A DNA stretch of 64,000 nucleotides from an uncultured Thermoanaerobaculia bacterium (GCA_964650405.1 CAZYTO010000001.1:4268-68267), one strand, 5' to 3'. Shown: positions 6,654 to 47,198, counted from the first letter of the stretch. Numbers and translations: made by a program. The notes: generated from the sequence alone by a model not told the origin.

Positions 6654-6675
6654 AAATAAGGAGGCCGCCTCGATC

Positions 6676-12770: not shown

Positions 12771-12846
12771 CCGCGCCGCCTTCACCCCTCACCGCTGCGA
12801 CGTACGGGCGCGCCTTCGCCGTGATCGGCTCGCCAGCCGGAATGCC

Positions 12847-21300: not shown

Positions 21301-21332
21301 AGCAAGGCAAGCAGGAACGAAATCAGCGACAT
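15396..21332 (-). CDS. Bacterial alpha-2-macroglobulin (thioester-containing protease inhibitor), 1,978 aa
   Basis: Signal peptide. Multiple MG-like beta-sandwich domains. Intact thioester motif GCTEQ (..[26 protein letters not shown]..), a TED alpha/alpha-toroid region, and a receptor-binding-like C-terminus. Confidence 0.9.
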   Translation of the reverse strand: [1978 protein letters not shown]

Positions 21333-21549: not shown

Positions 21550-22332
21550 CTACCGCGCCAGCGCAGCCCAGATGACGGCCAGTGAGGCCACGTCCGGCGC
21601 GCGCGGCGCGACCTTCGGATGGTCCCACTCGGCGGCGAAGCGCTGGAGGCGCCGCTCGTACTTCGGCGTCGAATACGCGCCGCAGATGTCTCCGGCGACA
21701 ACTTCGGTGCTCTCGCGGAGCGTCCGGATGGCCCATCCCACGTCATCGGCGGTGAAGAGGCCGTTTTCCCAGTTCGTGGCCATGTCCTCGGTGCGCAGGC
21801 AGTCGAGGTCCACCGTGACGTAGACGCTGGTTCCCCGGAGCGACCCGGCGAAGCGGGCGAAGTCGCCGCGCCAGCCGTCGCGGGTGAGGTCGCCCCGCTC
21901 CAGGTACCGCTCCCGCCACCCGTGGACCTGGAGGCGCGGGTCGCGGCTGCCGAAGAGACGCGCCGGCCAGTTGAGCTCGAAATTACCGCAACCCCAGACA
22001 CTGGCTCGGGTTACGTGCGGGAGCTCGAGGGCGCGGTTGATCCAGCCGCCGCAGGCCCAGTGCGGCGGGCGGCGGTCCCAATCGGGGTGGTTGTCGAACG
22101 AGACGAGGTGGATGGGCGTGCGGACGTTGCGGAGAAACGCGGCCGTGAGGTGGTGGAAGTCGCCCGAGCCGCTGAGAACGAAGGGTGGCAACCGGCTGGA
22201 TACCTCGCGGATGAACGCCTCCATCGTGCGGCGGGGGGCGAAGCAGCGGAGCCGCGGTCCCCAGGCCAGGGCGTCGATTCGCGCCATCCCGAGAATTTCC
22301 GGCTCCCACGCCGCGTCAAGGTCCAAGTACAC
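21550..22332 (-). CDS. Arginase/ureohydrolase-fold-like protein (UPF0489-like), hypothetical
   Basis: 260 aa with arginase-family-like metal motifs in the expected order: SGDFHH, FDNHPDW, VTVDLDCL. The start is uncertain. The annotated N-terminus overlaps the divergent desaturase start. Confidence 0.4.
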   Translation of the reverse strand: MYLDLDAAWEPEILGMARIDALAWGPRLRCFAPRRTMEAFIREVSSRLPPFVLSGSGDFHHLTAAFLRNVRTPIHLVSFDNHPDWDRRPPHWACGGWINRALELPHVTRASVWGCGNFELNWPARLFGSRDPRLQVHGWRERYLERGDLTRDGWRGDFARFAGSLRGTSVYVTVDLDCLRTEDMATNWENGLFTADDVGWAIRTLRESTEVVAGDICGAYSTPKYERRLQRFAAEWDHPKVAPRAPDVASLAVIWAALAR

Positions 22333-23239
22333 TGCGCAAGACTATCCGAACGTTAAACGCTCCGAACACTCCCTCCTCTTCCAATACTCCGCGTGGGACG
22401 CCATCCCGGTCGTCGCTGCCCTCGTGCAGTTCGCCTATCTGTTGTTCCTTTTCGTGGCCTTCCCGCGGCTGCCGGGCTGGGCGCTGCTCCCGCTCGGGCT
22501 GATCTGGTCGGTCAGCATCTCCTGGAACATCAACGGCGTGGCCCACAACTTCCTGCACAACGCCTATTTCCGCAGCAACGCCCTGAACCGCGTCTTCAGC
22601 ACCGTCCAGTCGGTCACGCTGGGCTTCTCGCAGGTCTTCTACGAACAGGTGCACAAGGACCATCACAAGGGGAACGCCGACCTCCCCGACACGCACGGCC
22701 GCACGCGCGATCCGCTGTCGATCTACAAGCACGGCCACGACGGACAGCCCGAGAGTCCGTGGACGTACGTGTTCCTCGGCTACTTCCGCGATGACCCGAA
22801 GGCCATCTACCGCTCCCTGCGCCGCAAGGGGCGGGCTCTGGCCTACTGGGGCGTGGCCGAGATCGTGCTCTTCCTCTCGCTCTACGTCGCCGCCGGCATC
22901 GCCAACTGGCGCTTCCTCGTGTTCTTCCTGCCGTTCTATTACTTTGGCCACTGTCTCTCGTACCTCAACGGCTACTACCTCCACTTCGGCGGCAAGCCCG
23001 ACGTGCCGCTGGCGTGGGGCGTCAGCTCGTACCACAAGCTGTACAACTGGACGTGGTTCAACAACGGCTACCACGCCGAGCACCACTACCGCCCGCGCGT
23101 GCACTGGACGGAGATGAAAGCGCTGCACGAACAACTCGCCGAGGAGCAGCAAACGGCGGGCGTGCGCGTGATCACGGTGCCCCACGCCCTCGGTTTTCTG
23201 GCCACGGCGCCCCCTCCGGAGCCGGAACCCGCGGCGTAG
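22211..23239 (+). CDS. Membrane fatty-acid desaturase-family protein (di-iron, three His boxes)
   Basis: His boxes HNFLHN, HKDHHKG and HAEHHYRP, with 4 or more TM segments. The only ATG/GTG start candidates in frame before the first TM are ATG 22211 and GTG 22226. The family includes sphingolipid/carotenoid-type desaturases and hydroxylases. The substrate is unknown. Confidence 0.7.
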   Translation: MNASIVRRGAKQRSRGPQARASIRAIPRISGSHAASRSKYTAQDYPNVKRSEHSLLFQYSAWDAIPVVAALVQFAYLLFLFVAFPRLPGWALLPLGLIWSVSISWNINGVAHNFLHNAYFRSNALNRVFSTVQSVTLGFSQVFYEQVHKDHHKGNADLPDTHGRTRDPLSIYKHGHDGQPESPWTYVFLGYFRDDPKAIYRSLRRKGRALAYWGVAEIVLFLSLYVAAGIANWRFLVFFLPFYYFGHCLSYLNGYYLHFGGKPDVPLAWGVSSYHKLYNWTWFNNGYHAEHHYRPRVHWTEMKALHEQLAEEQQTAGVRVITVPHALGFLATAPPPEPEPAA

Positions 23240-23370: not shown

Positions 23371-24855
23371 ATGACTCGAAACCGACTTGCAGCCGTGATG
23401 ACTTCGTTGTTCGTACTGCTTCTCGCCGCCGGCGTCTCTGCCGCCCACCGCCGGATCGGTCCGGCGCCGCAAGGGGGCGTGCTGGAAGGCGTCATCCTGA
23501 GGGTCGATGGCGGCAGCGTCACCATCGGCGGCCCCAACATCAATCAGAGCGTCCGGCTCGGCTCGGCCACCGCGGTGACGATCGACGGCCAGCCCTCCGG
23601 ACCCGGCGCCCTGAACGCCGGCGACGATGCCTCCCTGCAGGTTCACGAGGATGCCGGACGGCAGCTCGTTGCCGATGCGGTATCGGTCACGCACGATCAC
23701 GACGTCAGCGGCGTCATCACCACCGTCTCGGCGACGTCGCTGACCATCGACAGCGCCGACGGCTCGCACACATTCGCCATCACCACCGATACAGTGGTCA
23801 TCATCAACGGTCAGAAGGGGACCGCGGCCGGTCTGGCTACGGGAATGCACGTGGACGTGGCCTCGGCGATCCGGAATGGCACGCCGACGGCGCTGCTGAT
23901 CCGCGAAAAGACCGAGACGGCGGAGAGCGAAGGCACGGTGACGGCCGTCAGCGCCACGTCGATCACGGTCCACTCCTCCGACGGCAAGGACACCACCAGT
24001 GCCATCGACAGCCATACCGTGGTGCGCCGCGGCGACGCCGTGGCCAGGGTGGCGGACATCATCGTGGGCGCGCACGTGCACGTGTTCTCCGTGAACGGAA
24101 CGGCCGTGTTCATCCAGATCCAGGATCCGAACCGCCCGCTCGAGGTCCACGGCACGATCTCCGCCCTCGGGGCAAGCTCGATCACCGTGCATCCGAAGTC
24201 GGGCGCCGACGTGACGATCGCCGTCAACAGCGCGACCATCATCCGGCAGGGAAGGAACCAGCTTGCGTTCACCGATCTGAAGGTAGGTGACACCGTCGAC
24301 GTCGAAGCGCAGAAGGCCGCGGGCGGCGCGCTGACGGCGGTGCGCATCCAGGTGGAAGTGGAGGACGAGCGCTTCGTCGAAGTGCGCGGAACGATCACGG
24401 CCGTATCCGGCTCGATGCTCACGGTGAAGACGGCCGACGGCACGAGCGTGACGGTCTCGATCAGCTCCACGACGGTCATCCGTGCCCATGACGGGCACGG
24501 CTCGGTGTCCGACCTCACGGTGGGAGCGTCGGTGGAGATCGAAGCGAAGCGCAACGCCGACAACTCGCTCACGGCGCTCTTCATCGAGGTCAATGGGCCC
24601 ACGTTTGTCGCCACAGTCGAGGTGGAAGGGACGATCAAATCGGTCGGCACCTCGTCGTTGGTCGTGACCGTGCACTCCGGCGAAGTGACCGTCAGCGTCG
24701 ACGCCTCGACGGTGATCACCAACAACGGCCACTCGGCTCACCTGGCGGACCTCACGGCCGGAGAGCGCGTCGAGGTCCACGCGCAGCTCCAGCCCAACGG
24801 CGCACCGCCCCTGGCGAAGACCATCACTGCCATGAGTGCCACAAGCGGGCACTGA
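23371..24855 (+). CDS. Secreted protein built of six tandem ~75-80-aa beta-rich repeats (possibly DUF5666-like)
   Basis: Signal peptide (MTRNRLAAVMTSLFVLLLAAGVSAA). Repeat consensus roughly V.GTITAVS.SS.TV...DG..VT..I.S.T.I....G......DL.VG..V.VEA.....G.LTA..I.V, present six times. Confidence 0.65.
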   Translation: MTRNRLAAVMTSLFVLLLAAGVSAAHRRIGPAPQGGVLEGVILRVDGGSVTIGGPNINQSVRLGSATAVTIDGQPSGPGALNAGDDASLQVHEDAGRQLVADAVSVTHDHDVSGVITTVSATSLTIDSADGSHTFAITTDTVVIINGQKGTAAGLATGMHVDVASAIRNGTPTALLIREKTETAESEGTVTAVSATSITVHSSDGKDTTSAIDSHTVVRRGDAVARVADIIVGAHVHVFSVNGTAVFIQIQDPNRPLEVHGTISALGASSITVHPKSGADVTIAVNSATIIRQGRNQLAFTDLKVGDTVDVEAQKAAGGALTAVRIQVEVEDERFVEVRGTITAVSGSMLTVKTADGTSVTVSISSTTVIRAHDGHGSVSDLTVGASVEIEAKRNADNSLTALFIEVNGPTFVATVEVEGTIKSVGTSSLVVTVHSGEVTVSVDASTVITNNGHSAHLADLTAGERVEVHAQLQPNGAPPLAKTITAMSATSGH

Positions 24856-24872
24856 TGGCACTTGCTGACCTG

Positions 24873-24898
24873 ACGGCCGGCCCGAAGAGGCCGGCCGT
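24873..24898. terminator. Perfect GC hairpin between convergent genes (ACGGCCGGCC-cgaaga-GGCCGGCCGT)
   Basis: 10-bp stem, 6-nt loop, 18 bp after the stop of the repeat protein. There is no obvious U-tract, so it is a candidate bidirectional terminator or RNA-stabilising element. Confidence 0.4.
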
Positions 24899-25022
24899 GT
24901 CCGCACTTCGACGATACGGCTGGATCCCGCCGATCCGCCAGGAGTTTTCTTCGTAGTGGCGGGGTGAGGGGTCACGGCTTTCAACAGAGCCATTCATCGT
25001 GAGGGCGCTCGTTCATCCTAGC

Positions 25023-25325
25023 CTACCGCCGGATGTGACCAAGGCGCTCCCACTGTTCGAGCAGCCACGTCCAGAACGGACGGGACTTGCCGAGATAGCG
25101 CTCGATCGACGGCCAGAGATCGGCAATCTGCTGGGGCGTGATGAATTGCAGGGCGTCGTCGGGCTTGGCTTGCCGCATCAACTTGCCGATGAGATAGGGA
25201 TAGGTCGCCGAGTCGTGATCGGTTAGTGCACGTTCGAACTCATCGAGCGTCCACTCCATATCCCACAGGAAGTAGGGACGCCCCTGGGCGTCCGTGAGCA
25301 GATCGCGTGGTGTCGGGGCAAGCAT
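25023..25325 (-). CDS. Hypothetical small protein (100 aa)
   Basis: Clean ORF with non-repetitive composition (MLAPTPRDLLTDAQGRPYFLWDMEWTLDEFERALTD...). No recognisable family. Confidence 0.4.
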   Translation of the reverse strand: MLAPTPRDLLTDAQGRPYFLWDMEWTLDEFERALTDHDSATYPYLIGKLMRQAKPDDALQFITPQQIADLWPSIERYLGKSRPFWTWLLEQWERLGHIRR

Positions 25326-25382
25326 GATCGGTCCTGCGAAAGGATAGCCGCATTGGACCTAACGGAGAGTGCAGCCTGCGTC

Positions 25383-26348
25383 TTATCCCCCCGCCGCCGC
25401 CGGGCGAGGCTCCAGCCGGTCCAGCTCGTGCGGCAGGGAGAAGTGCACGTCCTCTTTCACCGTCAGCAGCTCTTCCACGTCCGTGACGCCGAGGCGCTCG
25501 CGGGCGAAGCCGATGACCTGCTGCACGAGGATCTCCGGGGCCGAGGCGCTGGCGGTGAGGCCGACCACCCGGGTGTCGTCGATCCACTCCGGCTGGATGT
25601 CGGCGGCGGTCTCGATGAGGTGGGCGCGGAGGTTGCGGGCCTGGGCCACCTCGCAGAGGCGGAGGGAGTTCGAGCTGTTGGGCGCGCCGAGGACGAGCAG
25701 CACGTCGACGTGCTGGGCCAGCGCCTTCACCGCGTCCTGCCGGTTCTGGGTGGCGTAGCAGATGTCGTCTTTCGGCGGCGCCTGCAGGGCGGGGAAGCGC
25801 TCGTGCAGGATCTGCACGATCTCGCGGGTGTCATCGACGCTGAGCGTGGTCTGGGTCAGGTAGACCACCTTGTCCGGCGTGTCGACCACGACGGTGCGCG
25901 CTTCCTCTTTCGAGCCGACGACGCGGATGGCGGCCGGAGCTTCGCCCAGCGTGCCGATGGTCTCGTCGTGCTCCTTGTGGCCCACGAAGAGGATGGTGTA
26001 GCCCTTGCGCGCGAACCCCACCACTTCCAGGTGGACCTTCGTCACCAGCGGGCAGGTGGCGTCGATGGTGAACAGCCGCTTCTGCCGGGCCACCTCGCGC
26101 ACCTCGGGGGAGATGCCGTGCGCGGAGAAGATCACCACGCCGCCGTCCGGCACCTCGTCCAGCTCCTCCACGAAGACCGCGCCGCGGCGGCGCAGCTCTT
26201 CGACGACGTAGCGGTTGTGGATGATCTCCTTGCGGACGTAGACAGTGCCTTCGCAGATCTCCAGCGCCTTCTCGACGACAGAGATGGCCCGCACCACGCC
26301 GGCGCAGAAACCGCGGAGGCCGGCCACCATGAGCTTGCGGCCGCTCAC
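25383..26348 (-). CDS. ispH: 4-hydroxy-3-methylbut-2-enyl diphosphate reductase
   Basis: Strong IspH/LytB signatures: GFCAGVVRAI, SAHGISP, HNRYVV, three Cys ligands. The start is either GTG at 26348 (overlapping the dxs stop) or ATG at 26330. Confidence 0.9.
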   Translation of the reverse strand: MSGRKLMVAGLRGFCAGVVRAISVVEKALEICEGTVYVRKEIIHNRYVVEELRRRGAVFVEELDEVPDGGVVIFSAHGISPEVREVARQKRLFTIDATCPLVTKVHLEVVGFARKGYTILFVGHKEHDETIGTLGEAPAAIRVVGSKEEARTVVVDTPDKVVYLTQTTLSVDDTREIVQILHERFPALQAPPKDDICYATQNRQDAVKALAQHVDVLLVLGAPNSSNSLRLCEVAQARNLRAHLIETAADIQPEWIDDTRVVGLTASASAPEILVQQVIGFARERLGVTDVEELLTVKEDVHFSLPHELDRLEPRPAAAGG

Positions 26349-28246
26349 CAGGTCACCGTCTCTTTCTCCAGCTCGCGGCCGGCGGGGAGGGGTGCGGACT
26401 GGGAAAGGTCCGGATAGAGCTCGAACACGTGCTCGACGATGCCTGCGGCGTCGAGCCGGAACTTGGCCCGCTGCTGGGGCTGCGGCGCGTGCTCGATGAA
26501 GACGTCCGGGATGGCATGGACGCGCACGCCCGTCGCATCGGAGCCGCGCGCCTCGAGCGCTTCGAGAACGGCGCTGCCGAGGCCGCCCGCGGCCAGGTGC
26601 TCCTCCAGGGTCACGAGCCGCGGCGCCAGCTCGAGGGCCTGCTCGATCAGCTCCGTGTCGAGCGGCTTGGCGAAGCGGGCGTTGATGACTCCGCAGTCGA
26701 CGCCGTGGGCGGCCAGCAGCTCCGCCGCTTCCAGCGCGGGCGGGACCATCGAGCCGTACGCGAAGAGCGTGACGTCGATGCCGGCGCGGAGCACTTCGCC
26801 GCGGCCTACGGGAATCTGCTGCAACGCGGCGTCGAGCGGGACGCCGGCGCCGAAGCCGCGCGGATAGCGCACGGCGAACGGCTTGCCGGAGTACACGGCG
26901 GTGAAGAGCAGGTGCTGCAGCTCGTTCTCGTCCTTCGGCGCGGCCACGGTCATGTTCGGGACGACGCGCGTGTAGCCGATGTCGAAGACGCCCTGGTGGG
27001 TCTTGCCGTCGTCGCCCACGAGCCCCGCGCGATCGATGCAGATGGTGACCGGCAGCGACTGCAGGGCAACGTCGTGGATGAGCTGATCGAACGAGCGCTG
27101 GAGGAACGTCGAGTAGATGGAGACGACCGGCCGCAGACCGGCCTTGGCCATTCCCGCCGCCATGATCACGGCGTGCTCCTCGGCGATGCCGACGTCATAG
27201 ACGCGGTCAGGGAAGTGGCGCCGCACCTCGGTCAGGGCCGTCCCTTCGAGCATGGCCGCGCTGATGGCCACCACCTTCGGGTCGTTGCGCATCAGCGTGA
27301 TGAGCGTCTTGGCGAAGACCTGCGAGTACGTGTAGCGGGGCGACGAATCGCTCGAAGCGCTGGGCGTGCCCGGCTGGTGATACTTCGACGGGTTCTCTTC
27401 GGCCGCCGCGTAGCCCCGCCCCTTGTGGGTAAGAACGTGCAGTACGACCGGGCCGTCGTTCGAGGCGTCGCGCGCGGAGCGGAGGGCCTCTTCGAGCGCA
27501 GGCTGGTCATGGCCGTCTACCGTCCCGATGTAGTGGAGGCCGAGCTCTTCCCACACGCGCCCGCTGCGCGGACGGGTGAGCCAGCCGACGTTCTCGGAGA
27601 TCGACCAGCCGTTATCGTTAAAGACCACGACCAGGCGTTTCGCCTTGCAGTGGCCGATGTTGTTGAGCGCTTCGTAGCTCGGTCCGGACGTGAGCGCGCC
27701 GTCGCCCACGACGGCCAGGACGTAAGGAGCCTCACCATCCGAAGATGAGAATTGTCCGTTCCCGTCGTGATCGTGGCCGTTGCCACCATGGCCATTGCCC
27801 GAGGAGGAGGACGGACTGTTGTCCGTCGCGCGAGGCTGCAGGGCGAGCGACATGCCGAGGGCGTAGGAGAGGCCGGTGCCGGCGTGTCCGGCGGCGAGCG
27901 TGTCGTGATCGCTCTCGGCCGGCTCGGCGAATCCGGAGAGCCCGCCCGGCGTGCGGATGGAGGCGAACTGGCGCCGCCGGCCGGTGACGAGCTTGTGGGT
28001 GTAGCACTGGTTGGAGGTATCCCACACGAAGCGGTCGTGCGGGCTGTGGAAGACGCGATGCATGGCCAGGGTGAGCTCCACCGCGCCGAGGTTCGAGGCA
28101 AGATGGCCGCCGCGCCGGGTAATGGTCTCGATGATCAGCGCGCGGCAGTCGGCCGCGAGCTCGGCCACTTCCGCGAAGCTGAGAGCATCGAGGTCGCGCG
28201 GGGAATCGATTCGTTCGAGTATGGTCAAAATCCTCACCTCACCCAT
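26345..28246 (-). CDS. dxs: 1-deoxy-D-xylulose-5-phosphate synthase, with a ~30-aa Ser/Gly/His/Asp-rich low-complexity insertion
   Basis: 633 aa with TPP-binding GDG...N motifs and pyrimidine-binding and transketolase C-terminal domains. The insertion ..PRATDNSPSSSSGNGHGGNGHDHDGNGQFSSSDGEAP.. lies just before the GDGALTSG motif. Confidence 0.9.
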   Translation of the reverse strand: MGEVRILTILERIDSPRDLDALSFAEVAELAADCRALIIETITRRGGHLASNLGAVELTLAMHRVFHSPHDRFVWDTSNQCYTHKLVTGRRRQFASIRTPGGLSGFAEPAESDHDTLAAGHAGTGLSYALGMSLALQPRATDNSPSSSSGNGHGGNGHDHDGNGQFSSSDGEAPYVLAVVGDGALTSGPSYEALNNIGHCKAKRLVVVFNDNGWSISENVGWLTRPRSGRVWEELGLHYIGTVDGHDQPALEEALRSARDASNDGPVVLHVLTHKGRGYAAAEENPSKYHQPGTPSASSDSSPRYTYSQVFAKTLITLMRNDPKVVAISAAMLEGTALTEVRRHFPDRVYDVGIAEEHAVIMAAGMAKAGLRPVVSIYSTFLQRSFDQLIHDVALQSLPVTICIDRAGLVGDDGKTHQGVFDIGYTRVVPNMTVAAPKDENELQHLLFTAVYSGKPFAVRYPRGFGAGVPLDAALQQIPVGRGEVLRAGIDVTLFAYGSMVPPALEAAELLAAHGVDCGVINARFAKPLDTELIEQALELAPRLVTLEEHLAAGGLGSAVLEALEARGSDATGVRVHAIPDVFIEHAPQPQQRAKFRLDAAGIVEHVFELYPDLSQSAPLPAGRELEKETVTW

Positions 28247-29889
28247 GCATTGATTGCGGAAAAGATGGAGCGCATGCGCTGCGTCCGCGGCCGCAGCGGC
28301 GGAACGCCGCGGGCCACGGCCTGATTGACGTGCCGGGAGATGCGGAAGACTTCGGCCCGGCCGATCTTGGCGCCGGCACCGGCGCGGGCGAGCTTGTCCA
28401 GCGTGGCCTCGGCCAGGGCCACGGGCAGGGCCGCGAAGGCCACGATGCCCTGCGGCGCTCCGCCCGACTGCAGGGCCAGCGTGTATTCGGTGGCCGCCTC
28501 GAGATCGGCCTTGGCCAGGGCGATGACGTCGGCCCGGTCGGCATCCGGCGGGATGTAGCTGCGTCCCTCGGAGAAGTCGTCGTTCGTGTCCTTGAGGATG
28601 TTGACGAGCTGCAGCCCCTCGCCGAACGTGGCGGCGCGGGCGCGCAGGTACGGCGCGGCGCTGCGAAGCTGAGGCGCCCGCAGCACGAAGAGCTCGGTCA
28701 ACATCTCGCCGACGATGCCCGCCACCGCGTAGCAGTAGTCGCGCAACTGCTGCATGCCGGTGAGCTGCAGCCGGTCACCGTGCGGCGTGACCTCGGTCAG
28801 GGCCACGAAGTGGGCCATGCCCTGCGCGGAGCGGATGACGTGCTCGCGGATGACGTCGCGCGCCTTTTCCGGCAGCGCCGCAAATGCGCGCATGACCAGG
28901 GGCACGTCGGCGATGAGCCGCGCGTAGCCCGCATGCGGCGACGGTTTCTTCGCGTACCAGGCAGCCGCGACGCGCTCGGCGTCGTGGTCCGTCCGCAACA
29001 GCTCACAGAACTCGTCCAGCGCCGCCAGCCGTTCGGCGACCGGCCAGTGGCTGGCGTCCTCGAACGTGTCTGCGATGCGGAAGAGGAGATAGGCAATCGT
29101 GACCTGCGCGCGCGTGCTGTCGCGGAGGAGGGGAATGCAGAGGGCGAAGGTGCGGCTGGTCTCGGCCAGCAGGGCGTCGAGGTGCGGGTCGCTCCCGTCG
29201 CCCGCTTCCGACGGCAGGCTGCCGGTGAAGCTTGCGAGGAAATCCGCAAGCGCGCCGGAACAGGCACGCAGCCGGTTGCGCATGTTCAGCAATGTCGGAA
29301 TCGCCGACGGCCGCAGCAGCGCGTGGCGGGTGACGGCCATGCGGTCGATCGTGCCGTCCGCGTTCGTGGCCGTGGCGACGAACGGCGGGATGTCGTCGTC
29401 GAGCGTGTCGAAGATCGCACGCACGGCCGTAAACGGCACACCCTTGCGTGCGGCGGCGCGCGCCCATCCCGCCGATTCGGTGTCGATGGCCTGCGCTCCG
29501 TTGTTGGAGAGCGCGTGCTTGTCGCCAACCATCCGCTCCACGGAGCGAAAGACGGCGCTCGCACCTGCCAGCGGCTGGCAGGCCAGCTCCGTGCCGTCGG
29601 GCGCGATGACTTTCTTCGCGACGATCACTTGATTGCGGTGCAGCTCCCCGGCGAGCGCGCCGGCGATGCCGGCGCCGATCAGCAGGGTGAGGTCGAATTC
29701 CTGGAGCAGGGCCGCGGCCGACTCCTCGGCGCGGGCCAGGCCGTCGCCGCCGGCCATGAGGACCACCGGGTGGCCGGAAAGGCGGCCGGCGTGACAACGC
29801 CGTCCGCCGATCCGCATCGTGCGCTCGACGGCCGTGCGGCGCAGCAGCGGCGCCAGCTCTTCCGGCAAGGCTGTGATGATGCCGATCAT
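28234..29889 (-). CDS. Fusion protein: N-terminal MTA/SAH-nucleosidase-family domain (HpnG-like adenosylhopane nucleosidase) plus C-terminal eukaryote-type squalene synthase
   Basis: Residues ~1-225 show a PNP/MTAN fold (MIGIITALPEELAPL...VVLMAGGDG...LLIGAGIAGAL). Residues ~235-551 align motif-for-motif with class-I squalene synthase: SRTFALCIP...YLLFRIADTFED, YCYAVAGIVGEMLTELF, and LQLVNILKDTNDDFSEGRSYIP, which is the second Asp-rich motif. It is a single uninterrupted ORF. Confidence 0.75.
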   Translation of the reverse strand: MIGIITALPEELAPLLRRTAVERTMRIGGRRCHAGRLSGHPVVLMAGGDGLARAEESAAALLQEFDLTLLIGAGIAGALAGELHRNQVIVAKKVIAPDGTELACQPLAGASAVFRSVERMVGDKHALSNNGAQAIDTESAGWARAAARKGVPFTAVRAIFDTLDDDIPPFVATATNADGTIDRMAVTRHALLRPSAIPTLLNMRNRLRACSGALADFLASFTGSLPSEAGDGSDPHLDALLAETSRTFALCIPLLRDSTRAQVTIAYLLFRIADTFEDASHWPVAERLAALDEFCELLRTDHDAERVAAAWYAKKPSPHAGYARLIADVPLVMRAFAALPEKARDVIREHVIRSAQGMAHFVALTEVTPHGDRLQLTGMQQLRDYCYAVAGIVGEMLTELFVLRAPQLRSAAPYLRARAATFGEGLQLVNILKDTNDDFSEGRSYIPPDADRADVIALAKADLEAATEYTLALQSGGAPQGIVAFAALPVALAEATLDKLARAGAGAKIGRAEVFRISRHVNQAVARGVPPLRPRTQRMRSIFSAINAWVR

Positions 29890-29893
29890 GCCG

Positions 29894-30895
29894 TCATCCG
29901 AGGAAGTTCCAGGCCATCATCCGGAACATGTCGCCGGGGTGCTTCGGCAGCTCGCGGACCACCGAGGCCTCGAAACCCGAGTGCATGGCGCAGTTGCGGC
30001 AGAGCGGATCCTCGCGCGACTCCCAGTACTGCCAGTCGGTGCCGTTCCAGAACTCATCCCACGAATCGGAGTAGGTCTTGCCGATCAGGTAGCACGGCCC
30101 CTTCCAGCCGCGGGGCGTGTAGGTGACGGTGCTCCAGGGGGAGCAGTTGTAGTCCCGGAGCCCGGCCGCGAACTCGAGGAACATCGGCGTCGAGGTGAGG
30201 CGGTACTTCTTCGAGATCTCCAGGACGCGGCGGAACTTCTTCTGGATCTCGTCGCGGGTGAGGAAGATGTCGCTCTCGACCGACTCGTAGTGATAGCCGG
30301 GCGAGACGAGCATCCCTTCCACGCCGAGGCCGGTGAGCATGCTGCAAAGCTCCTCGACCTCGGCCACGTCGGTCTCGCGGAAGATCGTCGTGTTGGCCAT
30401 CATGTGGTGGCCGGCGGCCACGCCGCGCTTGACCATCTCGATGGCCTTGTCGAACACGCCGTTGCGCGCGCAGACGCGGTCGTGCGTCTCCCGCATCCCG
30501 TCGAGGTGGACGTTGATCATCAGCCGCTTGTGCGGCTTGATGCGCCCGTAGACCTTTTCGTCGAGCAGTAGCGCGTTGGTGCAGAGGTAGATGTGGCGCT
30601 TGCGCTCGATCAGTCCGGCCACCAGCTCCGGCAGCTCCGGATAGAGCGTAGGCTCGCCGCCGCAGATGGAGATGACCGGTGCCTCGGAAATGTCCGCGGC
30701 CTCCAGGCATGCCTCGAGCGGCAGGCGGTCGGCCAGCTTGCCCGTGTGCCGCTCCAGCGCGCAGCCGATACAGGCCAGGTTGCACGTGTACAGCGGCTCG
30801 AGCATCAGCACGAACGGATAACGGCGGTTGCCCCTCAGTCCGTTGCGGACCTGAAGGCGGATGGTGTCAGTCGTAAGGTGAAGTGGAAACCTCAT
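29894..30895 (-). CDS. hpnH: Hopanoid-biosynthesis radical-SAM protein (adenosylhopane synthase)
   Basis: CNLACIGCA radical-SAM cysteine triad, and an HpnH-like N-terminus (RYPFVLMLEPLYTCNLAC). ATG at 30893-30895 overlaps the shc stop (ATGA). An alternative TTG start lies at 31000. Confidence 0.85.
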   Translation of the reverse strand: MRFPLHLTTDTIRLQVRNGLRGNRRYPFVLMLEPLYTCNLACIGCALERHTGKLADRLPLEACLEAADISEAPVISICGGEPTLYPELPELVAGLIERKRHIYLCTNALLLDEKVYGRIKPHKRLMINVHLDGMRETHDRVCARNGVFDKAIEMVKRGVAAGHHMMANTTIFRETDVAEVEELCSMLTGLGVEGMLVSPGYHYESVESDIFLTRDEIQKKFRRVLEISKKYRLTSTPMFLEFAAGLRDYNCSPWSTVTYTPRGWKGPCYLIGKTYSDSWDEFWNGTDWQYWESREDPLCRNCAMHSGFEASVVRELPKHPGDMFRMMAWNFLG

Positions 30896-32820
30896 CGTGT
30901 CGTTGCGTCCCTGTACTCGCCAAGTGCCCACAGGGGGAAGTACGTGGCGTAGAGGTGATAGCGAAGATAGAAGACCTTGGGGAAACCGGTGGCGGTCCAA
31001 TAGTCATCCCGCCAGGAGCCGTCCTCACGCTGATTGCGGAGCAGGTAGTCGACGCCGCGCCGCGCCTCCTCGGAGTCTCCCGCTCCCGCAGCGAGCAACG
31101 ACAGGAGGCCCCAGGCGGTCTGTGACGGCGTGCTCGGGCCGATACCCTTCTGCGACGGGTCGTCGTACGACGCGGGCAGCTCGCCCCAGCCGCCGTCGGG
31201 ATTCTGATGCTCGTTCATCCAGCGTACCATGCGCTCGAAGCGGTGGGCGTGAGCGGCCGGGTCGACGGCGGCCAGGCCGCGCGCGACGAGGAAGGTTCCG
31301 TAGATGTAGTTGCAGCCCCACCTTCCGTACCAGGTGCCGCTGAAGTCCTGGGTGTCGTGCAGGTAGCGCACGGCGGCCTGCAGGGCCGGGTGGCGCGGAT
31401 CGAAGCCGAGGCCGACCAGGGCTTCGAGGGTGCGGCCGGTGATGTCCTCACAACTGGGGTCGATCATGGCGTTATGGTCGGCAAAGGGGATGAAGGTGAA
31501 GACTTCATTATTGCATTCCTTGTCGAATGCACCCCAGCCGCCGTCGCGGTTCTGCATGGAGAGCTGCCATTGGATGGCCCAGTCCAGGGCCACGCGGCGG
31601 GCGCTCTCCTCCTCGTGGTCGGTGAACCGCACACCGTCGATGGCCAGCAGCACCTCGGAGGTGTCGTCGGTGTCGGGATAGAAGAGGTTGTCGTACTGGA
31701 AGAACCAGCCGCCGCCCTTCCCCTCGGGATTGTTGCGCTTCCAGTCGGCGTCGATGGTGGACTGTTTCGATAGGAGCCAGCGCGCCCCGGCCAGCAGGCG
31801 CGGGTCGTTCGCCGCCGTCCCGGTCTGCCGGAGGATGTGCACCGCCAGGGCCGTGTCCCACACGGCCGAGAAGCACGGCTGCAGGCGCAGCGTCCCGTTC
31901 TCTTCGATCTCGAAGCTCTCCAGCGCGTCGAGCTGGCTCTTGATGACCGGGTGATCGGCGGAATAGCCGAGCGCGCGGAAGGCGAAGATGACATTGATGA
32001 TGGGAGGGAAGATGGCGCCGAGGCCGCCGCTGCCCTCGAGATGCTCGACGATCCACGCGGTGGCCTTCTTCAGCGCGCGGCGGCGCAACGGCTTGAGCGG
32101 AATGGCCTCGGCGATCTTGGCGACGACGTCGGTCACGTTGAAGAACCCGCGCCAGAAACGCTCGCGCCGGGAGCGTTTCACCGGCTCGGCATGCCGCTTC
32201 GCCGCATACAGCTCCTCGATTCCAAGGGGCACTTCGCACGTCGGCTTGTGCGCCCAGATGATCGACAGCGGCACGACGATGCAACGCGACCAGTACGACA
32301 TCTTGTAGATGTTGAAGGCGAACCAGTCCGGGAAGAGGATCAGCTCCGGCGGCACGGCCGGGCACTTGGCCCAGTCGTACTGCCCGAAGATCGAGAGATA
32401 GATCTTCGTGAAAGAATTACAGGCGTCCACGCCTCCGAGGGCGAGGATGCTCTCCCGGGCCCGGACCATGTGCGGCGCGTCGGGCGAGTCACCGGCGAGC
32501 TTGAGCACGAAGTAGGCCTTGACCGAACCGCTCAGCTCCGTCGGACCGCCGGCGTAGATGGGCCACCCGCCGTCGTCGAGCTGCTGCTGGCGCAGGTAGG
32601 CCGCACCCTTGCGGAAGCGCTCGTCGTGAGCCCGGCCAAGGTAGTGCAGGAGAAGGAGATACTCCGACTCGAGGATGGTGTCACCCTCGAGCTCCCCACA
32701 CCAGTGGCCGTCCATGTGCTGGATGGAGAAAAGGCGTTGCCGGGCGGCCTCCATGGCCGCCGCGACCCTGGTTGTCTCTTCAGAGACTTCGTCTACAACT
32801 GGGAACTGGTGAACTGTCAT
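30892..32820 (-). CDS. shc: Squalene-hopene cyclase
   Basis: 642 aa. DTDDTSE catalytic aspartate motif (DxDDTA-type), multiple QW repeats, and the characteristic C-terminus (...GFPKVFYLRYHLYATYFPLWALGEY). Confidence 0.93.
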   Translation of the reverse strand: MTVHQFPVVDEVSEETTRVAAAMEAARQRLFSIQHMDGHWCGELEGDTILESEYLLLLHYLGRAHDERFRKGAAYLRQQQLDDGGWPIYAGGPTELSGSVKAYFVLKLAGDSPDAPHMVRARESILALGGVDACNSFTKIYLSIFGQYDWAKCPAVPPELILFPDWFAFNIYKMSYWSRCIVVPLSIIWAHKPTCEVPLGIEELYAAKRHAEPVKRSRRERFWRGFFNVTDVVAKIAEAIPLKPLRRRALKKATAWIVEHLEGSGGLGAIFPPIINVIFAFRALGYSADHPVIKSQLDALESFEIEENGTLRLQPCFSAVWDTALAVHILRQTGTAANDPRLLAGARWLLSKQSTIDADWKRNNPEGKGGGWFFQYDNLFYPDTDDTSEVLLAIDGVRFTDHEEESARRVALDWAIQWQLSMQNRDGGWGAFDKECNNEVFTFIPFADHNAMIDPSCEDITGRTLEALVGLGFDPRHPALQAAVRYLHDTQDFSGTWYGRWGCNYIYGTFLVARGLAAVDPAAHAHRFERMVRWMNEHQNPDGGWGELPASYDDPSQKGIGPSTPSQTAWGLLSLLAAGAGDSEEARRGVDYLLRNQREDGSWRDDYWTATGFPKVFYLRYHLYATYFPLWALGEYRDATTR

Positions 32821-32887
32821 GTCCAGACCTCGCCGATTCCCGGGCCGAAATCAGACGACTTGTCATCACTGCTCCCCTGGAACCTGA

Positions 32888-34220
32888 TTATATGGGTGGA
32901 TGCGGCAGTTCGCCGCGCAACAATCTAAAACGGGCGACGACAGCCGTTAGATGTGCTGAGGCGCTGGAAGTTTCGTCTTCCGCGTCAGATAGCGCAATCT
33001 CGGCAGTCTCCACATCGTTCGCTTCTCCACGTCCCTCCCGCGCCAGCTCCTCCGCAACGCGCAGGCTCTCCTGGGCCACGGCCAGTGCGCGGCCGGCCAG
33101 ATTGCTCTCCGCCGTCGCCTCGTTCACCTCGGTCACGGCTTCACTCCAGGCGAGCTCGAGTTGCGCGCGGCGCGCCTCGCGCCCGGCCTTGAGCTGTTCG
33201 AGTTGCGCCGCCACGCGCGTAGACGTCGCCGCCCGACGCCCCCCGGTCCACAAGGGGAGAGTCACCGTCGCGCCCACGCTAAGGTCGTTTGGCGTGAAAT
33301 GGTTGTAATAGCGTCCAAAGCGGTCGAAGAGCCGCGAATATTGCACCTGCGCGGCAATGCTCGGTTGCCAGAAAGCGCTGCTCACGACCAGTGCCTTCTG
33401 CAGGGCATCGATGCGCACATCGAATGCGCGCAACTCGGGGTCGGCGGTGAGTGCGGCCTTCACATCGCCGCGCTCGCCCGCGTTTCTCGTTCCCATCTCA
33501 GGCGATTGCGCCTGCGCCGGGGCAGCCCAGACGTCTCCGACCATGCTGCTGAAACGCGCGCGATCGAGGTCGTAACGGGCGCGGGCCTGCGCTTCGCGCC
33601 GCTGGGCCATGGCCACTTGCAGGATGGCGCGGTCGACGTCGAGATCGCGGGCCCGCCCCTCCTTCTGCAGTGCCTGTGTGCGAGCGGCGATCGTCTCGCT
33701 CGCCGCCACGCGCCGCTGCGCCGAGGCGATGAGAGAGGCGCCGCCCACAAGGCGGCCGTAGAGCTCCGCGACGTTCTGGGCCACTTCGCGCCGCCGCGCC
33801 TCCAGCCGCGCCACCGCCGCGTCCACTTCCGACAGTGCGGTCAGTTGCTCCGCATGGGCGGACGCATCGTAGAGGAGCCGGTGTGCCTCGACCGTGCCGA
33901 TGGCCGGCACCTGGCCGAGAACGGCGATGGGCAGGCCGGTGGCGTATCCGGGCGTCGTGGAGATCGAAGCCGCGGGCGCGAACGGATTGGCCAGGGTCGC
34001 GCTCGCCCGCGCCTCCGCCACCCCCGCTTCCAGCACGCGCAGGTCAGGCGCATGCGCAAGGGCATGCGCGATCGCCTCATCGAGCGTCTGGGTCTGGCCG
34101 GCGGTGGCGAACAACAACAGGAGGCCGAATGCCAGAAACCGAACACCGAACCGGACCGCCGCAGGCGGTGTAGGGCACGACCGCGTCGTGCCGAACCCCG
34201 GCGGGCGGGCAGGCGGCGTC
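32888..34220 (-). CDS. TolC-family outer-membrane efflux protein (start uncertain)
   Basis: Two TolC-like repeats with coiled-coil segments; the signal-peptide-like stretch is ..RFLAFGLLLLFATAGQTQT. The annotated upstream extension to 34411 is GC-rich read-through containing tandem hairpin repeats, so the real start probably lies near 34150-34220. A TTG at ~34220 is one candidate. Confidence 0.65.
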
Positions 34221-34269
34221 AAGGGCGCACCGGGGTCAGGGGCCGCGCCGGGGTCAGAGCTTCTGTCTT

Positions 34270-34370
34270 CTCCGGCGTGACCAAAGACCGAAGGTCTGAC
34301 CCCAGCAGTGCCAACCGGACACCGAAGATCTGGCCCCAGCCCTGCCGAAGACCGAAGGTCTGACCCCAAC
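34270..34370. repeat. Tandem ~34-bp repeat (x3) with embedded mini-hairpin AGACC-GAA-GGTCT in the spacer between the FtsX-like permease and TolC genes
   Basis: agaccgaaggtctgacccca occurs twice exactly (about 34278 and 34346), with a degenerate third copy, gacaccgaagatctggcccca, between them. Confidence 0.4.
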
Positions 34371-34403
34371 CTTGTCGCGGGGGCCGCCGAGGCGGCGGGG
34401 TTC

Positions 34404-35612
34404 TTACTCATGCCGCAGGGCCTCGGTGGGATTGAGATTTGCCGCGCGCACGGCGGGGGCTACGCCGAAGAGCAGTGTGACTCCGGCGGAGAAGAGAAAC
34501 GCCAGGATGGCCGAGAGGGGCGAGATCTCGATGGCGACCTGCCTCACGAGCGTGCGCAGCACGAGCGGGACGCCGACGCCGATACCGACGCCGAGGGCCG
34601 AGCCGATGCTGCCCAGCAGCAGCGCTTCGAGGAGGAACTGGGCCAGGATGTCGCGCTGCCGCGCTCCCACCGAGCGCCGGATGCCGATCTCCCGCGTGCG
34701 ATGCTCCACCGAGGCCAGGAGGATGTTCATGATCCCCACGCCGCCGACGATCACCGAAACCGATGCGGCCAGGATGAAGACGACGATGAGCCCGGCCGAG
34801 ATCGTCTTGGCCACAGTGACCACCTGGGTCATGTTCTCGACGTTGAACACGGCGCCCGGGCGGTGGCGGTCGTGCAGGGTCTCTTCGACGACCTTCTGGG
34901 CGCGGGGGATGGCGTTGAAATCGCGCACGTCGGCGAAGAGGGTGTCGACGCGGTGCGCCGGCGCCGTGAAGAACCAGGCCACGGTGATAGGGATGAAGAG
35001 CGTGTCGGCGCGCATCTCGCCGTTGCCCATCGTATCGACGGGATTTTCGAACTCGCCGATGACGAGAAACGTCATGCCCAGCGTGCGGACCGTCTTCTCC
35101 GCGGCCTCGTCGTTGCGGAAGAGCTTCTCGTAGAGCTCCCTGCTGACCACGCAGACTTTGGAGCGCTGCGTGAGGTCGTCGTCGTCGAGGAAGCGCCCGC
35201 GCAGGAGGTGCACGTTGCGGCGGACGTCGACATAGCTGGGCGAGGTGCCGAGGACGGCGACGGTTACCGAGCGCGCCTCGACCGCGACGCTTCCCTTCAT
35301 CTCCACGAGCGGCGTGACGCCGGAGAAGAGGTCCGTCCGTGCCGTGACGGCCTGCGCGTCGCCTTCGTTGATGCGGTCGTCGACGGCGTGGGAGACGCCC
35401 GCGGTGATGTTGCCTTCGTACGTCGCCCACACGACATGCGAGCCGACGGCCTCAATCTGGGCCATGACGAAGGCGCGCCCGCTCAGTCCGAGCGAGACGA
35501 TGATGATGATCGCGGCCGTGCCGACGATGAGCCCCGCCAGGGTCAGCCATGTCTGCAGCGGGTGCGTGCGGAAGCGGTGCAGCGCGGTGGAGAGGACTTC
35601 GCGGCCGATCAT
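34404..35612 (-). CDS. ABC-transporter permease, FtsX/MacB-like (permease only, no ATPase domain)
   Basis: 402 aa. N-terminal TM, large periplasmic domain, and a C-terminal 3-TM FtsX domain (..GIMNILLASVEHRTREIGIRRSVGA..). Confidence 0.8.
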   Translation of the reverse strand: MIGREVLSTALHRFRTHPLQTWLTLAGLIVGTAAIIIIVSLGLSGRAFVMAQIEAVGSHVVWATYEGNITAGVSHAVDDRINEGDAQAVTARTDLFSGVTPLVEMKGSVAVEARSVTVAVLGTSPSYVDVRRNVHLLRGRFLDDDDLTQRSKVCVVSRELYEKLFRNDEAAEKTVRTLGMTFLVIGEFENPVDTMGNGEMRADTLFIPITVAWFFTAPAHRVDTLFADVRDFNAIPRAQKVVEETLHDRHRPGAVFNVENMTQVVTVAKTISAGLIVVFILAASVSVIVGGVGIMNILLASVEHRTREIGIRRSVGARQRDILAQFLLEALLLGSIGSALGVGIGVGVPLVLRTLVRQVAIEISPLSAILAFLFSAGVTLLFGVAPAVRAANLNPTEALRHE

Positions 35613-35822
35613 TCGCCCGCCCCGGCATTGCGATTCGCTTTGCTCTGTCGCAGATTGGAGCCTGGGAGAAACCCCTCACCCCGGCCCTTCCGCGCTGAGG
35701 GTAGCGAAGCCGATTCCGCCCGCGTGGAAGTGCGCGCTCCAGGGCCGACCCTCTCCCGCCGGGAGAGGGTGGCCTTGTCTCGCTTTCCGTCTTCGACAGT
35801 CATTTCGTCTCAGTCCGATTCG

Positions 35823-36983
35823 TCACGAGCCGGTTGCCGTCTTCGCCGGCGCTGCCTCGACAGTCTGGCCGTCTTTCAGCGGCGCGGCGCTCGGCAGGAT
35901 CACCAGGTCGCCTTCGCGCAGACCGCTGACGACCTCCACGTCATTCGGGCCGATCAGGCCGACTTCGACCGGCGTTCGGGAGGCCTTGCCGCCGAGCAGG
36001 CGGTAGACGATGCGGGCCGTTCCTTCGCGCTGCAGGGCGCCGCGGGGAATGACCAGCGCCGATGGTTTCTCGCCGGCCACGATCTCGACGTTGACCGACG
36101 CATTGGAGGGGAGGGCGCCGGCATCGCCGGAAAGCTCGCCGAGGACTTCCCCGACCTCCCGCCCGCCTGCGTCGCGCAACCCGGGCGGCACGAGGACGAC
36201 GCTGCCGTCCCATCTGCCGCCGCGTGCGCCGTCGAACGTGACGACGAGACGCTGGCCGGCGCGGACGCGGGGGAGGTCGGGTGCATCGACGCGTGCACGG
36301 ACCCGCACGTGCAGCGGGTCGGTCACCGTGGCCAGGAGCTGGCCGGGGGCGACGCTTTCGCCGGCGGCGCGGGGGAGGTTGTAGACGATACCTGCGGCCG
36401 GCGCGCGCAGGAGCCGCGACGTCGCGCGGCGCTCCAGCTCCCGCGTCGATTGCTCGAGGAGCTGCCTCCGTTTCGCGACGTCGGCGGCATGTGCGGCGGC
36501 CTGGCGCACCTTTTCCTCCGCCTGACGCCAGGCACCTTCGTCCATGCTCTGCTGCTGCGCGGTGATGGCTCCGGTTTTCACGAGTCGGGCATCACCTTCG
36601 ACGATGCTCTTCAGATGCTGCGCCTCCTGCTCAGCGGCCGTACGCTCGATGGCGTTGCTCTCGGCCTCGGCAGCAAGCTGCGCCGCCTCCTGGCGGCTTG
36701 CGAGGAGTCGTTGATCGAGCTCGGGGTTTTCCAGTCGCACCAGCGCCGCGCCGGGAGCCACGCGATCGCCTTCGCGTACGAGCACTGCCCCGACGATTCC
36801 TCCCTCGGCGGCGCGGACTTCGCCGCCGGCCGGCGATTCGAGTGAGCCGTCAGCCAGGATGGGCACGACGAGCGCCCGCCGCGCGACCGGCGCTGTTTCC
36901 ACGAGTGGTGTTTCATGGCAGGCCAGCGTGAGCAGCGCAACGGCTGCTGCCCCCACCACCCGGCCTTTTGCCCTGTCCGTCAT
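35823..36983 (-). CDS. HlyD/MacA-family periplasmic adaptor subunit
   Basis: Membrane anchor, coiled-coil hairpin (..LDQRLLASRQEAAQLAAEAESNAIERTAAEQEAQ..), and beta-barrel/lipoyl-like regions. ATG start at ~36983 (MTDRAKGRVV...). Confidence 0.8.
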   Translation of the reverse strand: MTDRAKGRVVGAAAVALLTLACHETPLVETAPVARRALVVPILADGSLESPAGGEVRAAEGGIVGAVLVREGDRVAPGAALVRLENPELDQRLLASRQEAAQLAAEAESNAIERTAAEQEAQHLKSIVEGDARLVKTGAITAQQQSMDEGAWRQAEEKVRQAAAHAADVAKRRQLLEQSTRELERRATSRLLRAPAAGIVYNLPRAAGESVAPGQLLATVTDPLHVRVRARVDAPDLPRVRAGQRLVVTFDGARGGRWDGSVVLVPPGLRDAGGREVGEVLGELSGDAGALPSNASVNVEIVAGEKPSALVIPRGALQREGTARIVYRLLGGKASRTPVEVGLIGPNDVEVVSGLREGDLVILPSAAPLKDGQTVEAAPAKTATGS

Positions 36984-37221
36984 CGACTCTTCACTCCCGC
37001 CCTTCTTGCAGAGAGACGTACGCGCCGGGGTCCGGTTTTGCTCACGATTCGCCATCAGCCGCACGCCAATTCCGCCGGATTTGCCTCTCGTAGCCCTATC
37101 CTGCCCTTCTCCGGACGGTTCCCAGATCCTATCAGGTTGAAAGTCTCCAATGATTTACATGGTTCAGCTTGCGAAAGTGTGAGTTACGACAAACAATCCT
37201 AGTCCCATAGGAGGTTTTTCT

Positions 37222-46707: not shown

Positions 46708-46716
46708 ACGGAGGCG

Positions 46717-47187: not shown

Positions 47188-47198
47188 GGAGGACGCTC

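Follow-up and report, generated by a model that had tools for sequence, protein, structure and literature searches.

A Gene Joining a Predicted HpnG-Like Nucleosidase to a Predicted Squalene Synthase in the Hopanoid Operon of an Uncultured Thermoanaerobaculia Bacterium

Introduction

In a 64,000-nucleotide stretch of DNA from an uncultured Thermoanaerobaculia bacterium, a soil acidobacterium (GCA_964650405.1, CAZYTO010000001.1:4268-68267), analysed here at its full length and referred to as the window, a single open reading frame (ORF) appears to join two enzymes of hopanoid synthesis, an HpnG-like nucleosidase and a squalene synthase (Sqs). Is this gene real, and does the joining of the two enzymes reflect a functional coupling or the merger of two neighbouring genes? 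A preliminary description of the window had left both points open, considering a membrane-associated hopanoid metabolon as well as a sequencing artefact.

We put the probability at roughly 0.8 that the ORF is a genuine, heritable bifunctional gene of a Thermoanaerobaculia-related lineage of Acidobacteriota, which arose by a single merger of neighbours and whose halves most likely work independently of each other. According to the proposed scheme, ancestral hpnG and sqs genes, neighbours with touching or overlapping stop and start codons, would have been joined once into one reading frame. The Sqs domain would convert two farnesyl diphosphate molecules to presqualene diphosphate and then squalene, with Mg2+ and NAD(P)H. 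This squalene would feed the squalene-hopene cyclase Shc, and the HpnC/HpnD/HpnE route would not be needed. The HpnG-type domain would strip adenine from adenosylhopane, the product of HpnH. A short, flexible and weakly constrained linker would connect two domains that most likely act independently, and the fusion would ensure their equimolar co-synthesis and co-localisation. Both enzyme activities, and any selective benefit of the fusion, we infer from the sequence.

Results and Discussion

The Fusion Gene and Its Operon

The ORF runs from ATG to TGA over 551 codons with no internal stop codon, and its GC content at third codon positions (GC3, 0.89) is in line with that of the adjoining genes (window GC 67%). 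Its translation and the Pfam and NCBIfam matches confirmed the gene identities given in the preliminary description and the presence of both domains in one ORF. The compact operon that had been proposed around it was recovered as well, with all the flanking genes scoring above their NCBIfam cut-offs.

30892..32820, minus strand: shc, squalene-hopene cyclase (TIGR01507, 691 bits, cut-off 431)
29894..30895, minus strand: hpnH, adenosylhopane synthase of the radical SAM type (TIGR03470, 362 bits, cut-off 225)
28234..29889, minus strand: hpnG::sqs fusion ORF, 551 amino acids (aa) plus stop (ORF list, translation, two Pfam domains)
26345..28246, minus strand: dxs (TIGR00204, 630 bits, cut-off 466)
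25383..26348, minus strand: ispH (lytB) (TIGR00216, 327 bits, cut-off 188)

The five genes are all on the minus strand and translationally coupled. The junction sequences showed that the ATG of hpnH overlaps the stop codon of shc as ATGA and that dxs starts within the end of the fusion, with a 13-nt overlap; a 4-nt gap separates the hpnH stop codon from the ATG of the fusion, and the ispH start overlaps the dxs stop by 4 nt. No second SQS_PSY-like or PNP_UDP-like ORF was found in the 64-kb window, and a promoter and terminator scan of positions 24800-37400 returned no signal exceeding the shuffled expectation.

Recurrence of the Fusion

The preliminary description had suggested a search for the same fusion in related genomes. 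Of 5.8 billion protein clusters, 50 (90% identity) contain the two Pfam domains together. Their identity to the window protein is 50-81%, and their source assemblies are those of NCBI, JGI, ENA and Logan. Shorter matches with 64-71% identity lie on contigs of 1-4 kb and look like truncated copies. A genome scan with one genome per GTDB species then returned 80 loci, which were subjected to six-frame analysis over ±8 kb each. Nearly all of them belong to metagenome-assembled genomes (MAGs) labelled Acidobacteriota, Acidobacteria gp7 or Thermoanaerobaculia, and 7 to Gemmatimonadota/Gemmatimonadales. The fusion occurs as a single ORF in five species-level MAG loci (L001-L005), hpnG is directly followed by a separate sqs in 41 loci, hpnG is located about 6.5 kb upstream of sqs in 3, and sqs stands alone within the ±8 kb stretch in 30. 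Two JGI metagenome contigs from different samples also carry the fusion: in L082 it is 80% identical to the window protein and sits in an identical shc-hpnH-fusion-dxs-ispH operon, and in L083 it is 81% identical and is followed by an overlapping downstream gene.

These data bear directly on the possibility that a frameshift or a missed stop codon had joined two genes in the contig. The overlap of hpnG and sqs in relatives is as little as 1-4 nt, so that one indel would join them, and the apparent fusion in locus L021 probably arose in this way within a frameshift-ridden MAG. The in-frame junction of the window, however, is seen again in 50 protein clusters drawn from four data sources independent of one another, in five species-level MAGs and in L082 and L083 from separate JGI samples; moreover, the fused forms are monophyletic and their linkers are mutually homologous. 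A stop codon or frameshift at the junction, which the preliminary description had named as the observation that would speak against a real fusion, occurs in none of the 50 clusters and five MAGs. Independent recurrence and monophyly rule out an assembly artefact as the cause of the fusion, and we regard a joined-by-error contig as extremely improbable.

L021 itself was considered as a second fusion event and was discounted, because shc, hpnH, dxs and ispH are also frameshifted in this long-read MAG. In three long-read MAG loci labelled MFD (L021, L059 and L068) shc and hpnH are split into several frames, as are dxs and ispH in L021. Through indel errors, such assemblies can show gene fusions that do not exist or hide ones that do.

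Evolutionary Origin

The arrangement of the unfused genes indicates how the fusion could have been produced. The hpnG stop codon and the sqs start codon overlap as ATGA in L019, L035 and L031 and as GTGA in L018, and in other unfused loci they are a few nucleotides apart; such pairs need only a small indel or a lost stop codon to become joined. When the Sqs domain was used for a neighbour-joining tree, the window protein and L001-L005 grouped in one clade, whose sister is a large clade of adjacent genes. Since hpnG and sqs are adjacent in the relatives and the fused forms constitute a single clade, the fusion is therefore the result of one merger of neighbouring genes.

The distribution of hpnA provides a relative date. 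This gene for a hopanoid-associated sugar epimerase (TIGR03466, 481 bits, above the cut-off of 368) is located between hpnH and hpnG in 47 loci, for example at 7001-7987 in L019. Among the fused forms, the basal loci L003 and L005 have kept it, but the clusters of the window, L001, L002 and L004 lack it; a search of the whole 64-kb window revealed no hpnA homologue. As the basal fused loci still contain hpnA, the fusion came first and the loss of hpnA from the cluster later.

A search for two-domain proteins among 1.84 billion representatives at 50% identity returned only four proteins spanning both domains, namely P0027, which stands for the main fused cluster, two of its fragments and the distant P0122 (570 aa, 41% identical; 404-2116 in L081). 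The longer linker of P0122 keeps the 'MTSLETLL' start of Sqs, and both of its domains most resemble those of unfused proteins; it is probably an independent HpnG-Sqs fusion, a tentative assignment based on a single 2.5-kb contig. Members of the same Sqs family are also fused to IspH/LytB (P0203, 623 aa) and to a NAD_binding_8 protein (P0242, 964 aa), and mergers with neighbouring genes appear to be frequent for this sqs family.

The N-Terminal HpnG-Like Domain

The N-terminal half of the protein has the fold of the methylthioadenosine/S-adenosylhomocysteine nucleosidases (MTAN, Pfs).

29218..29889, minus strand: residues 1-224, HpnG-like nucleosidase/phosphorylase domain with MTAN fold (NCBIfam, profile search, Foldseek)
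29857..29862, minus strand: E10-E11, aligned to AMEEE/AMPEE of solved MTANs
29473..29484, minus strand: D136-T-E138-S139, aligned to the MTAN V-E-M-E-A motif ('avEMEata')
29407..29421, minus strand: R157-A-I-F-D161, aligned to 'vvRAvSD'/RAISD of MTAN

PNP_UDP_1 (PF01048) matched this part of the protein with 68 bits (E 1e-18, gathering score 25.1), the best stretch covering residues 2-101. The best NCBIfam family was HpnG (TIGR03468), aligned over residues 39-215 and profile positions 19-210 of 212, and HpnG was likewise the top family for all 16 fused and unfused relatives compared (best E 2.6e-36). A profile built from the HpnG domains of fused and unfused proteins matched known structures of MTAN at E 4e-28 and those of DeoD-type purine nucleoside phosphorylase at 4e-12. 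For this half, a Foldseek search with the AlphaFold model gave MTAN or futalosine hydrolase for all of the top 50 matches, with a template modelling (TM) score of about 0.75 on the target.

The residues expected to be catalytic are well conserved. E10-E11 show no substitution in either of two alignments, one of 20 fused proteins and one of 16 HpnG domains both fused and unfused, and we take them to map to Glu12 in the AMEEE motif of E. coli MTAN. D136, E138 and S139 are invariant across the same 16 domains; among the 20 fused proteins E138, presumably the equivalent of E. coli MTAN Glu174, is nearly invariant, being replaced by Asp in one. R157 and D161 are invariant in both sets and presumably correspond to R193 and Asp197 of MTAN, the latter being the catalytic acid.

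The gene context agrees with this assignment. In the window the HpnG domain adjoins hpnH on the downstream side, and in 47 related loci HpnG is directly downstream of hpnA, which in turn comes after hpnH wherever the contig reaches that far. By motifs, fold, family ranking and gene context, the N-terminal domain probably works like HpnG, whose knockouts in model organisms build up adenosylhopane (PMC13459092, PMC12583986). The ratio of nonsynonymous to synonymous substitution rates (dN/dS) for the HpnG half, calculated among the window, L082 and L083, was 0.22-0.31. This half is less conserved than the Sqs half, with 25-55% against 51-72% identity.

The C-Terminal Squalene Synthase Domain

The second half of the protein was assigned to squalene synthase (SQS) on the basis of family profiles, motifs and structure comparisons.

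28300..29181, minus strand: residues 237-530, squalene synthase (Sqs-type) domain (Pfam SQS_PSY, NCBIfam, structure searches)
29146..29160, minus strand: T244-S-R-T-F248, counterpart of the SQS 'TSRSF' segment (aligned to human and fungal SQS)
29056..29070, minus strand: first Asp-rich motif, D274-T-F-E-D278 (aligned to DTLED of human SQS)
28576..28590, minus strand: second Asp-rich motif, D434-T-N-D-D438 (aligned to DYLED of human SQS)

SQS_PSY (PF00494) matched residues 242-449 with 118.6 bits (E 5e-34, gathering score 26). The NCBIfam ranking placed squal_synth first with 94 bits, followed by HpnD (47), HpnC (45) and CrtB (33), and squal_synth was the strongest family in all 25 relatives examined (best E 1.4e-29). 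A profile of the domain matched the human, fungal and Trypanosoma cruzi SQS structures of the PDB at E 3e-25 and CrtM and phytoene synthase (PSY) at 1e-13. The AlphaFold model of the domain showed a mean local confidence (predicted local distance difference test, pLDDT) of 94 and a predicted TM score (pTM) of 0.91; in Foldseek, ranks 1-42 were all SQS (TM 0.59-0.74), and the first CrtM-like chain appeared at rank 43 (TM 0.55).

Both Asp-rich motifs, whose conservation had been noted in the preliminary description, align with human SQS; in 20 fused homologues T244-S-R-T-F248, D274-T-F-E-D278, D434 and D438 are invariant, and both Asp-rich motifs are kept in unfused homologues too. Y385-C-Y387-A-V-A-G (YCxxVAG) is invariant and aligns with human and fungal SQS, as is F485-A-A-L-P489 (the F-x-A-L-P region), which aligns with FNFCAIPQ of fungal SQS. 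We take the Tyr of the former and the Phe of the latter, which like the TSRSF segment are tied to the two half-reactions, to correspond to human Y171 and F288, Phe288 being needed for the second half-reaction. K508 and R511, in G-A-K-I-G-R, are also invariant; their segment presumably resembles V-K-I-R-K of the human enzyme near the cofactor site, a similarity that we treat as a lead only. Loss of catalytic residues upon alignment had been indicated as a test of the assignment, and none is lost in either half. The Sqs half gave a dN/dS of 0.11-0.13 among the window, L082 and L083.

On these sequence and model comparisons the domain is closer to Sqs than to its paralogues HpnC, HpnD, CrtB/PSY and CrtM, and probably represents a compact (about 300 aa), divergent bacterial subfamily of single-enzyme Sqs. 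The term 'eukaryote-type' used in the preliminary description is a misnomer, since single-enzyme Sqs is widespread in bacteria, where it often displaces HpnCDE, and a bacterial origin has been inferred for it (PMC7306690).

The absence of hpnC, hpnD and hpnE, also pointed out in the preliminary description, applies to the window and, in relatives, to the cluster. No other SQS_PSY-like ORF was found in the 64-kb window, even at E 10, no HpnE-type amine-oxidase domain turned up in Pfam scans of the window ORFs, and the ±8 kb examined in each of the 80 related loci contained no second SQS_PSY-like ORF.

Catalytic Competence of the Two Halves

Several observations weigh against the interpretation of the protein as a simple bifunctional merger. 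The Sqs domain reaches 94.3 bits in TIGR01559, where the cut-off is 286.75, with profile positions 9-200 of 337 aligned; similarly, the HpnG domain scores 102.2 bits in TIGR03468, below the curated cut-off of 187.1. Both domains belong to divergent subfamilies without a characterised member, and the chemistry of HpnG, hydrolysis or phosphorolysis, is unsettled even in model organisms (PMC13459092, PMC12583986). The absence of hpnC/D/E covers only the 64-kb window and ±8 kb of 80 loci. Finally, the retention of the fusion down to about 50% identity could reflect a benefit beyond a neutral merger.

The low profile scores raise the alternative that one half is non-catalytic. The HpnG half might be a pseudo-enzyme retained for dimerisation or binding; alternatively, only a half-reaction might be performed by the C-terminal domain, as an HpnD-like presqualene diphosphate synthase or another head-to-head synthase, with partners encoded elsewhere. 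The weaker conservation of the HpnG half would fit the former version; for the latter, hpnC and hpnE were looked for only in the window and the ±8 kb loci, and HpnD is known to co-occur with Sqs in some bacteria (PMC7306690, PMC5462960). However, the residues mapped to MTAN Glu12, Glu174 and Asp197 are invariant or nearly so, and the dN/dS of the HpnG half is 0.22-0.31. The TSRSF segment, the two Asp-rich motifs, the Tyr of YCxxVAG and the F-x-A-L-P region are all preserved in the Sqs domain, which resembles SQS more than HpnD, HpnC or CrtM in both sequence and fold. Moreover, the adjoining Shc and HpnH need squalene and an enzyme that processes adenosylhopane. We therefore judge a non-catalytic half to be very unlikely.

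Linker, C-Terminal Tail and the Question of Coupling

Two further segments complete the protein.

29182..29217, minus strand: inter-domain linker, about residues 225-236 (alignment, AlphaFold, dN/dS)
28237..28299, minus strand: basic C-terminal tail (...RPRTQRMRSIFSAINAWVR), residues 531-551, present in part of the fused clade only

The fused linker (...LADFLASFTGSLPSEAGDGSDPHLDALLAETSRTF...) corresponds to the C-terminus of HpnG and the N-terminus of Sqs in unfused relatives, and its length and sequence differ among fused homologues. AlphaFold assigned it a pLDDT below 50 at residues 228-231. The whole-protein model had a mean pLDDT of 89.8 and a pTM of only 0.60, which suggests that the packing of the two domains is not confidently predicted. 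The dN/dS of residues 216-239 was 0.33-0.66 with the close relatives L082 and L083 and 0.77 with L001. From the lower values of the two halves (0.22-0.31 and 0.11-0.13) it follows that both domains are kept by purifying selection, the linker being merely a tether.

In many fused homologues the tail carries the conserved pattern R-x-R-S-I/M-F-S (RPR..Q..R-M-R-S-I-F-S...). It is missing from unfused Sqs, which ends near ...ALDRGEPAV, and it is predicted by AlphaFold with low confidence. No transmembrane segment was found in the protein, including the C-terminal tail, whose amphipathicity is only moderate.

The preliminary description had suggested that the fusion physically couples the first committed step to side-chain processing. 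In such a model Sqs and the late side-chain enzyme would be held in a membrane-associated hopanoid complex, or sensing of adenosylhopane or adenine by HpnG would modulate the flux through Sqs. The persistence of the fusion through divergence (50-81% identity) with both halves under selection is compatible with this, and so are the gain of a conserved basic tail without counterpart in unfused Sqs by part of the fused clade and the translational coupling of all five operon genes. MTAN-fold enzymes are dimers, and the fusion would accordingly be expected to dimerise Sqs. On the other hand, channelling of an intermediate is impossible because the Sqs and HpnG steps are not consecutive, Shc and HpnH acting in between, so that nothing can be passed directly from one domain to the other. 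The linker is short, variable and of low confidence, with a pTM of 0.60 for the whole protein; the sister clade, comprising 41 genomes, uses separate proteins in the same cluster; the fusions of the Sqs family to IspH (P0203) and NAD_binding_8 (P0242) suggest opportunistic mergers of neighbours; and the lack of a detectable transmembrane segment does not favour a membrane complex. On balance, functional coupling appears unlikely.

A specific form of it is quite unlikely: that HpnG would bring Sqs into a dimer, hold it at the membrane and tie the first committed step to adenosylhopane or adenine, by allostery or through a complex with Shc and HpnH. If true, hopanoid synthesis would have a flux control of its own built into the enzyme, and this in a lineage that also dispenses with HpnCDE and HpnA.

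Co-expression at 1:1 is the only consequence that directly follows from the fusion, and the joining of adjacent, often overlapping and translationally coupled genes fully explains it; neither a metabolon nor a coordinated stoichiometry is needed.

Comparison with Known Systems

The closest counterparts of the fusion are the separate, adjacent hpnG and sqs genes of sister MAGs (L019, L016 and L028), whose products are 31-39% (HpnG) and 52-58% (Sqs) identical to the window protein. These MAGs share the cluster shc-hpnH-(hpnA)-hpnG-sqs...dxs-ispH, often after HlyD-MacB-OEP genes. They differ from the window in having two polypeptides, in the presence of hpnA between hpnH and hpnG, and in the position of dxs, which is often several kb further downstream.

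Among fusions already described, a fused hpnCD gene has been reported in subdivision-2 Acidobacteria, some Actinobacteria and some Alphaproteobacteria (PMC5462960). It resembles the present case as a fusion of neighbouring genes in the squalene/hopanoid pathway that occurs within Acidobacteria (PMC5462960). However, hpnCD joins paralogues catalysing consecutive steps of the three-enzyme squalene route, whereas the partner of the single-enzyme Sqs in the window has an unrelated fold and acts three steps further on.

With the Sqs/FDFT1 enzymes (EC 2.5.1.21; human, T. cruzi and Aspergillus flavus structures) the window domain shares the fold along nearly its full length, at the TM scores given above, together with the TSRSF segment, both Asp-rich motifs, YCxxVAG and the F-x-A-I/L-P region. 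It differs in its identity of only about 24% to the SQS structures solved from eukaryotes, in its length of about 300 aa without a C-terminal membrane anchor, in its score under the TIGR01559 cut-off and in bearing an N-terminal HpnG domain; its activity is predicted. Characterised bacterial Sqs enzymes are those of Thermosynechococcus and Methylococcus (cited in PMC5462960).

With HpnG (TIGR03468) and MTAN, the N-terminal domain has in common the MTAN fold, the mapped acid/base residues and HpnG as best-scoring family, as well as the neighbours hpnH, shc and, in relatives, hpnA. It differs in its score (102 against 187.1 bits) and in its fusion to Sqs, its substrate being predicted.

The presence of dxs and ispH in or beside hopanoid clusters has already been described for Acidobacteria (PMC5462960). 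The subdivision-22 (SD22) genome 'Mor1' contains shc, hpnH and an Sqs-like gene without hpnCDE, together with a mevalonate pathway (PMC5462960); because of that pathway it provides only a loose parallel. The sole cultured representative of subdivision 23 was reported to be without the genes needed for hopanoid synthesis (PMC5462960). In a full-text literature search, neither an HpnG-Sqs fusion nor the occurrence of hopanoid genes in Thermoanaerobaculia was found to be mentioned.

What is new is the HpnG-Sqs domain architecture, the component enzymes being of known kinds. The fusion itself is a textbook merger of neighbouring genes, with little mechanistic novelty unless coupling is demonstrated. 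The locus shows that a large uncultured branch of Acidobacteriota, the Thermoanaerobaculia-related MAGs, has a complete-looking hopanoid cluster built on a single-enzyme Sqs and not on HpnCDE, in which surveys with curated cut-offs, or those expecting separate genes, probably miss both HpnG and Sqs. The fused protein also offers a convenient single construct for two uncharacterised subfamilies, the bacterial Sqs of about 300 aa and the MTAN-like HpnG.

Other Genes in the Window

Within the operon, residues ~145-172 of Dxs form a low-complexity insert rich in Ser, Gly, His and Asn (SPSSSSGNGHGGNGHDHDGNGQFSSSDGE), which breaks the DXP_synthase_N match into several stretches.

Immediately upstream of shc and on the same strand (32888-37064, minus strand) are genes for a TolC-like outer-membrane factor (32888-34411), for a MacB-type FtsX permease that lacks an ATPase domain (34404-35612) and for an adaptor of the MacA/HlyD type (35823-37064). 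In at least a dozen related loci (L001-L004, L014, L016, L022, L026, L034, L036, L059 and L068) members of the trio are found ahead of shc, and the three may form an exporter that is linked to hopanoids and differs from HpnN.

On the other side of the operon, and convergent to ispH, a gene at 21884-23239 (plus strand) encodes a protein of the fatty-acid-desaturase family with 451 aa, an N-terminal extension of ~195 aa and no NCBIfam match. Desaturase-family genes are also found beside the cluster in L001 (9180-10024, minus strand) and L002 (13832-14882, minus strand), and the protein may modify lipids or hopanoids.

Positions 56348-59243 (minus strand) may hold a second group of genes related to isoprenoids; there, a geranylgeranyl-reductase-family FAD protein (86 bits, under the cut-off), an ABA4-like membrane protein and a SnoaL-like protein adjoin each other.

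The region 40593-51374 looks like an amino-lipid or small natural-product cluster. It includes a 1600-aa protein (40593-45395, minus strand) with AMP-binding, carrier (PP-binding) and class-III aminotransferase domains and a C-terminal Rossmann-like region, and, nearby on the plus strand, genes for acyl-CoA-dehydrogenase-like (45535-46707), FemAB/GNAT-like (49183-50331) and thioester-reductase-like (50265-51374) proteins.

The remaining genes include a bacterial alpha-2-macroglobulin of 1978 aa (15396-21332, minus strand) with MG2, bait-region, thioester (TED) and MG10 domains. Positions 1222-14055 constitute a neighbourhood for the utilisation of sugar acids and polysaccharides, with a TonB-dependent-receptor-like outer-membrane barrel (1969-5250), a glucuronate isomerase (10636-12078), an enolase-superfamily dehydratase (12847-14055), a ROK regulator, a short-chain dehydrogenase and a heparinase II/III-like protein.

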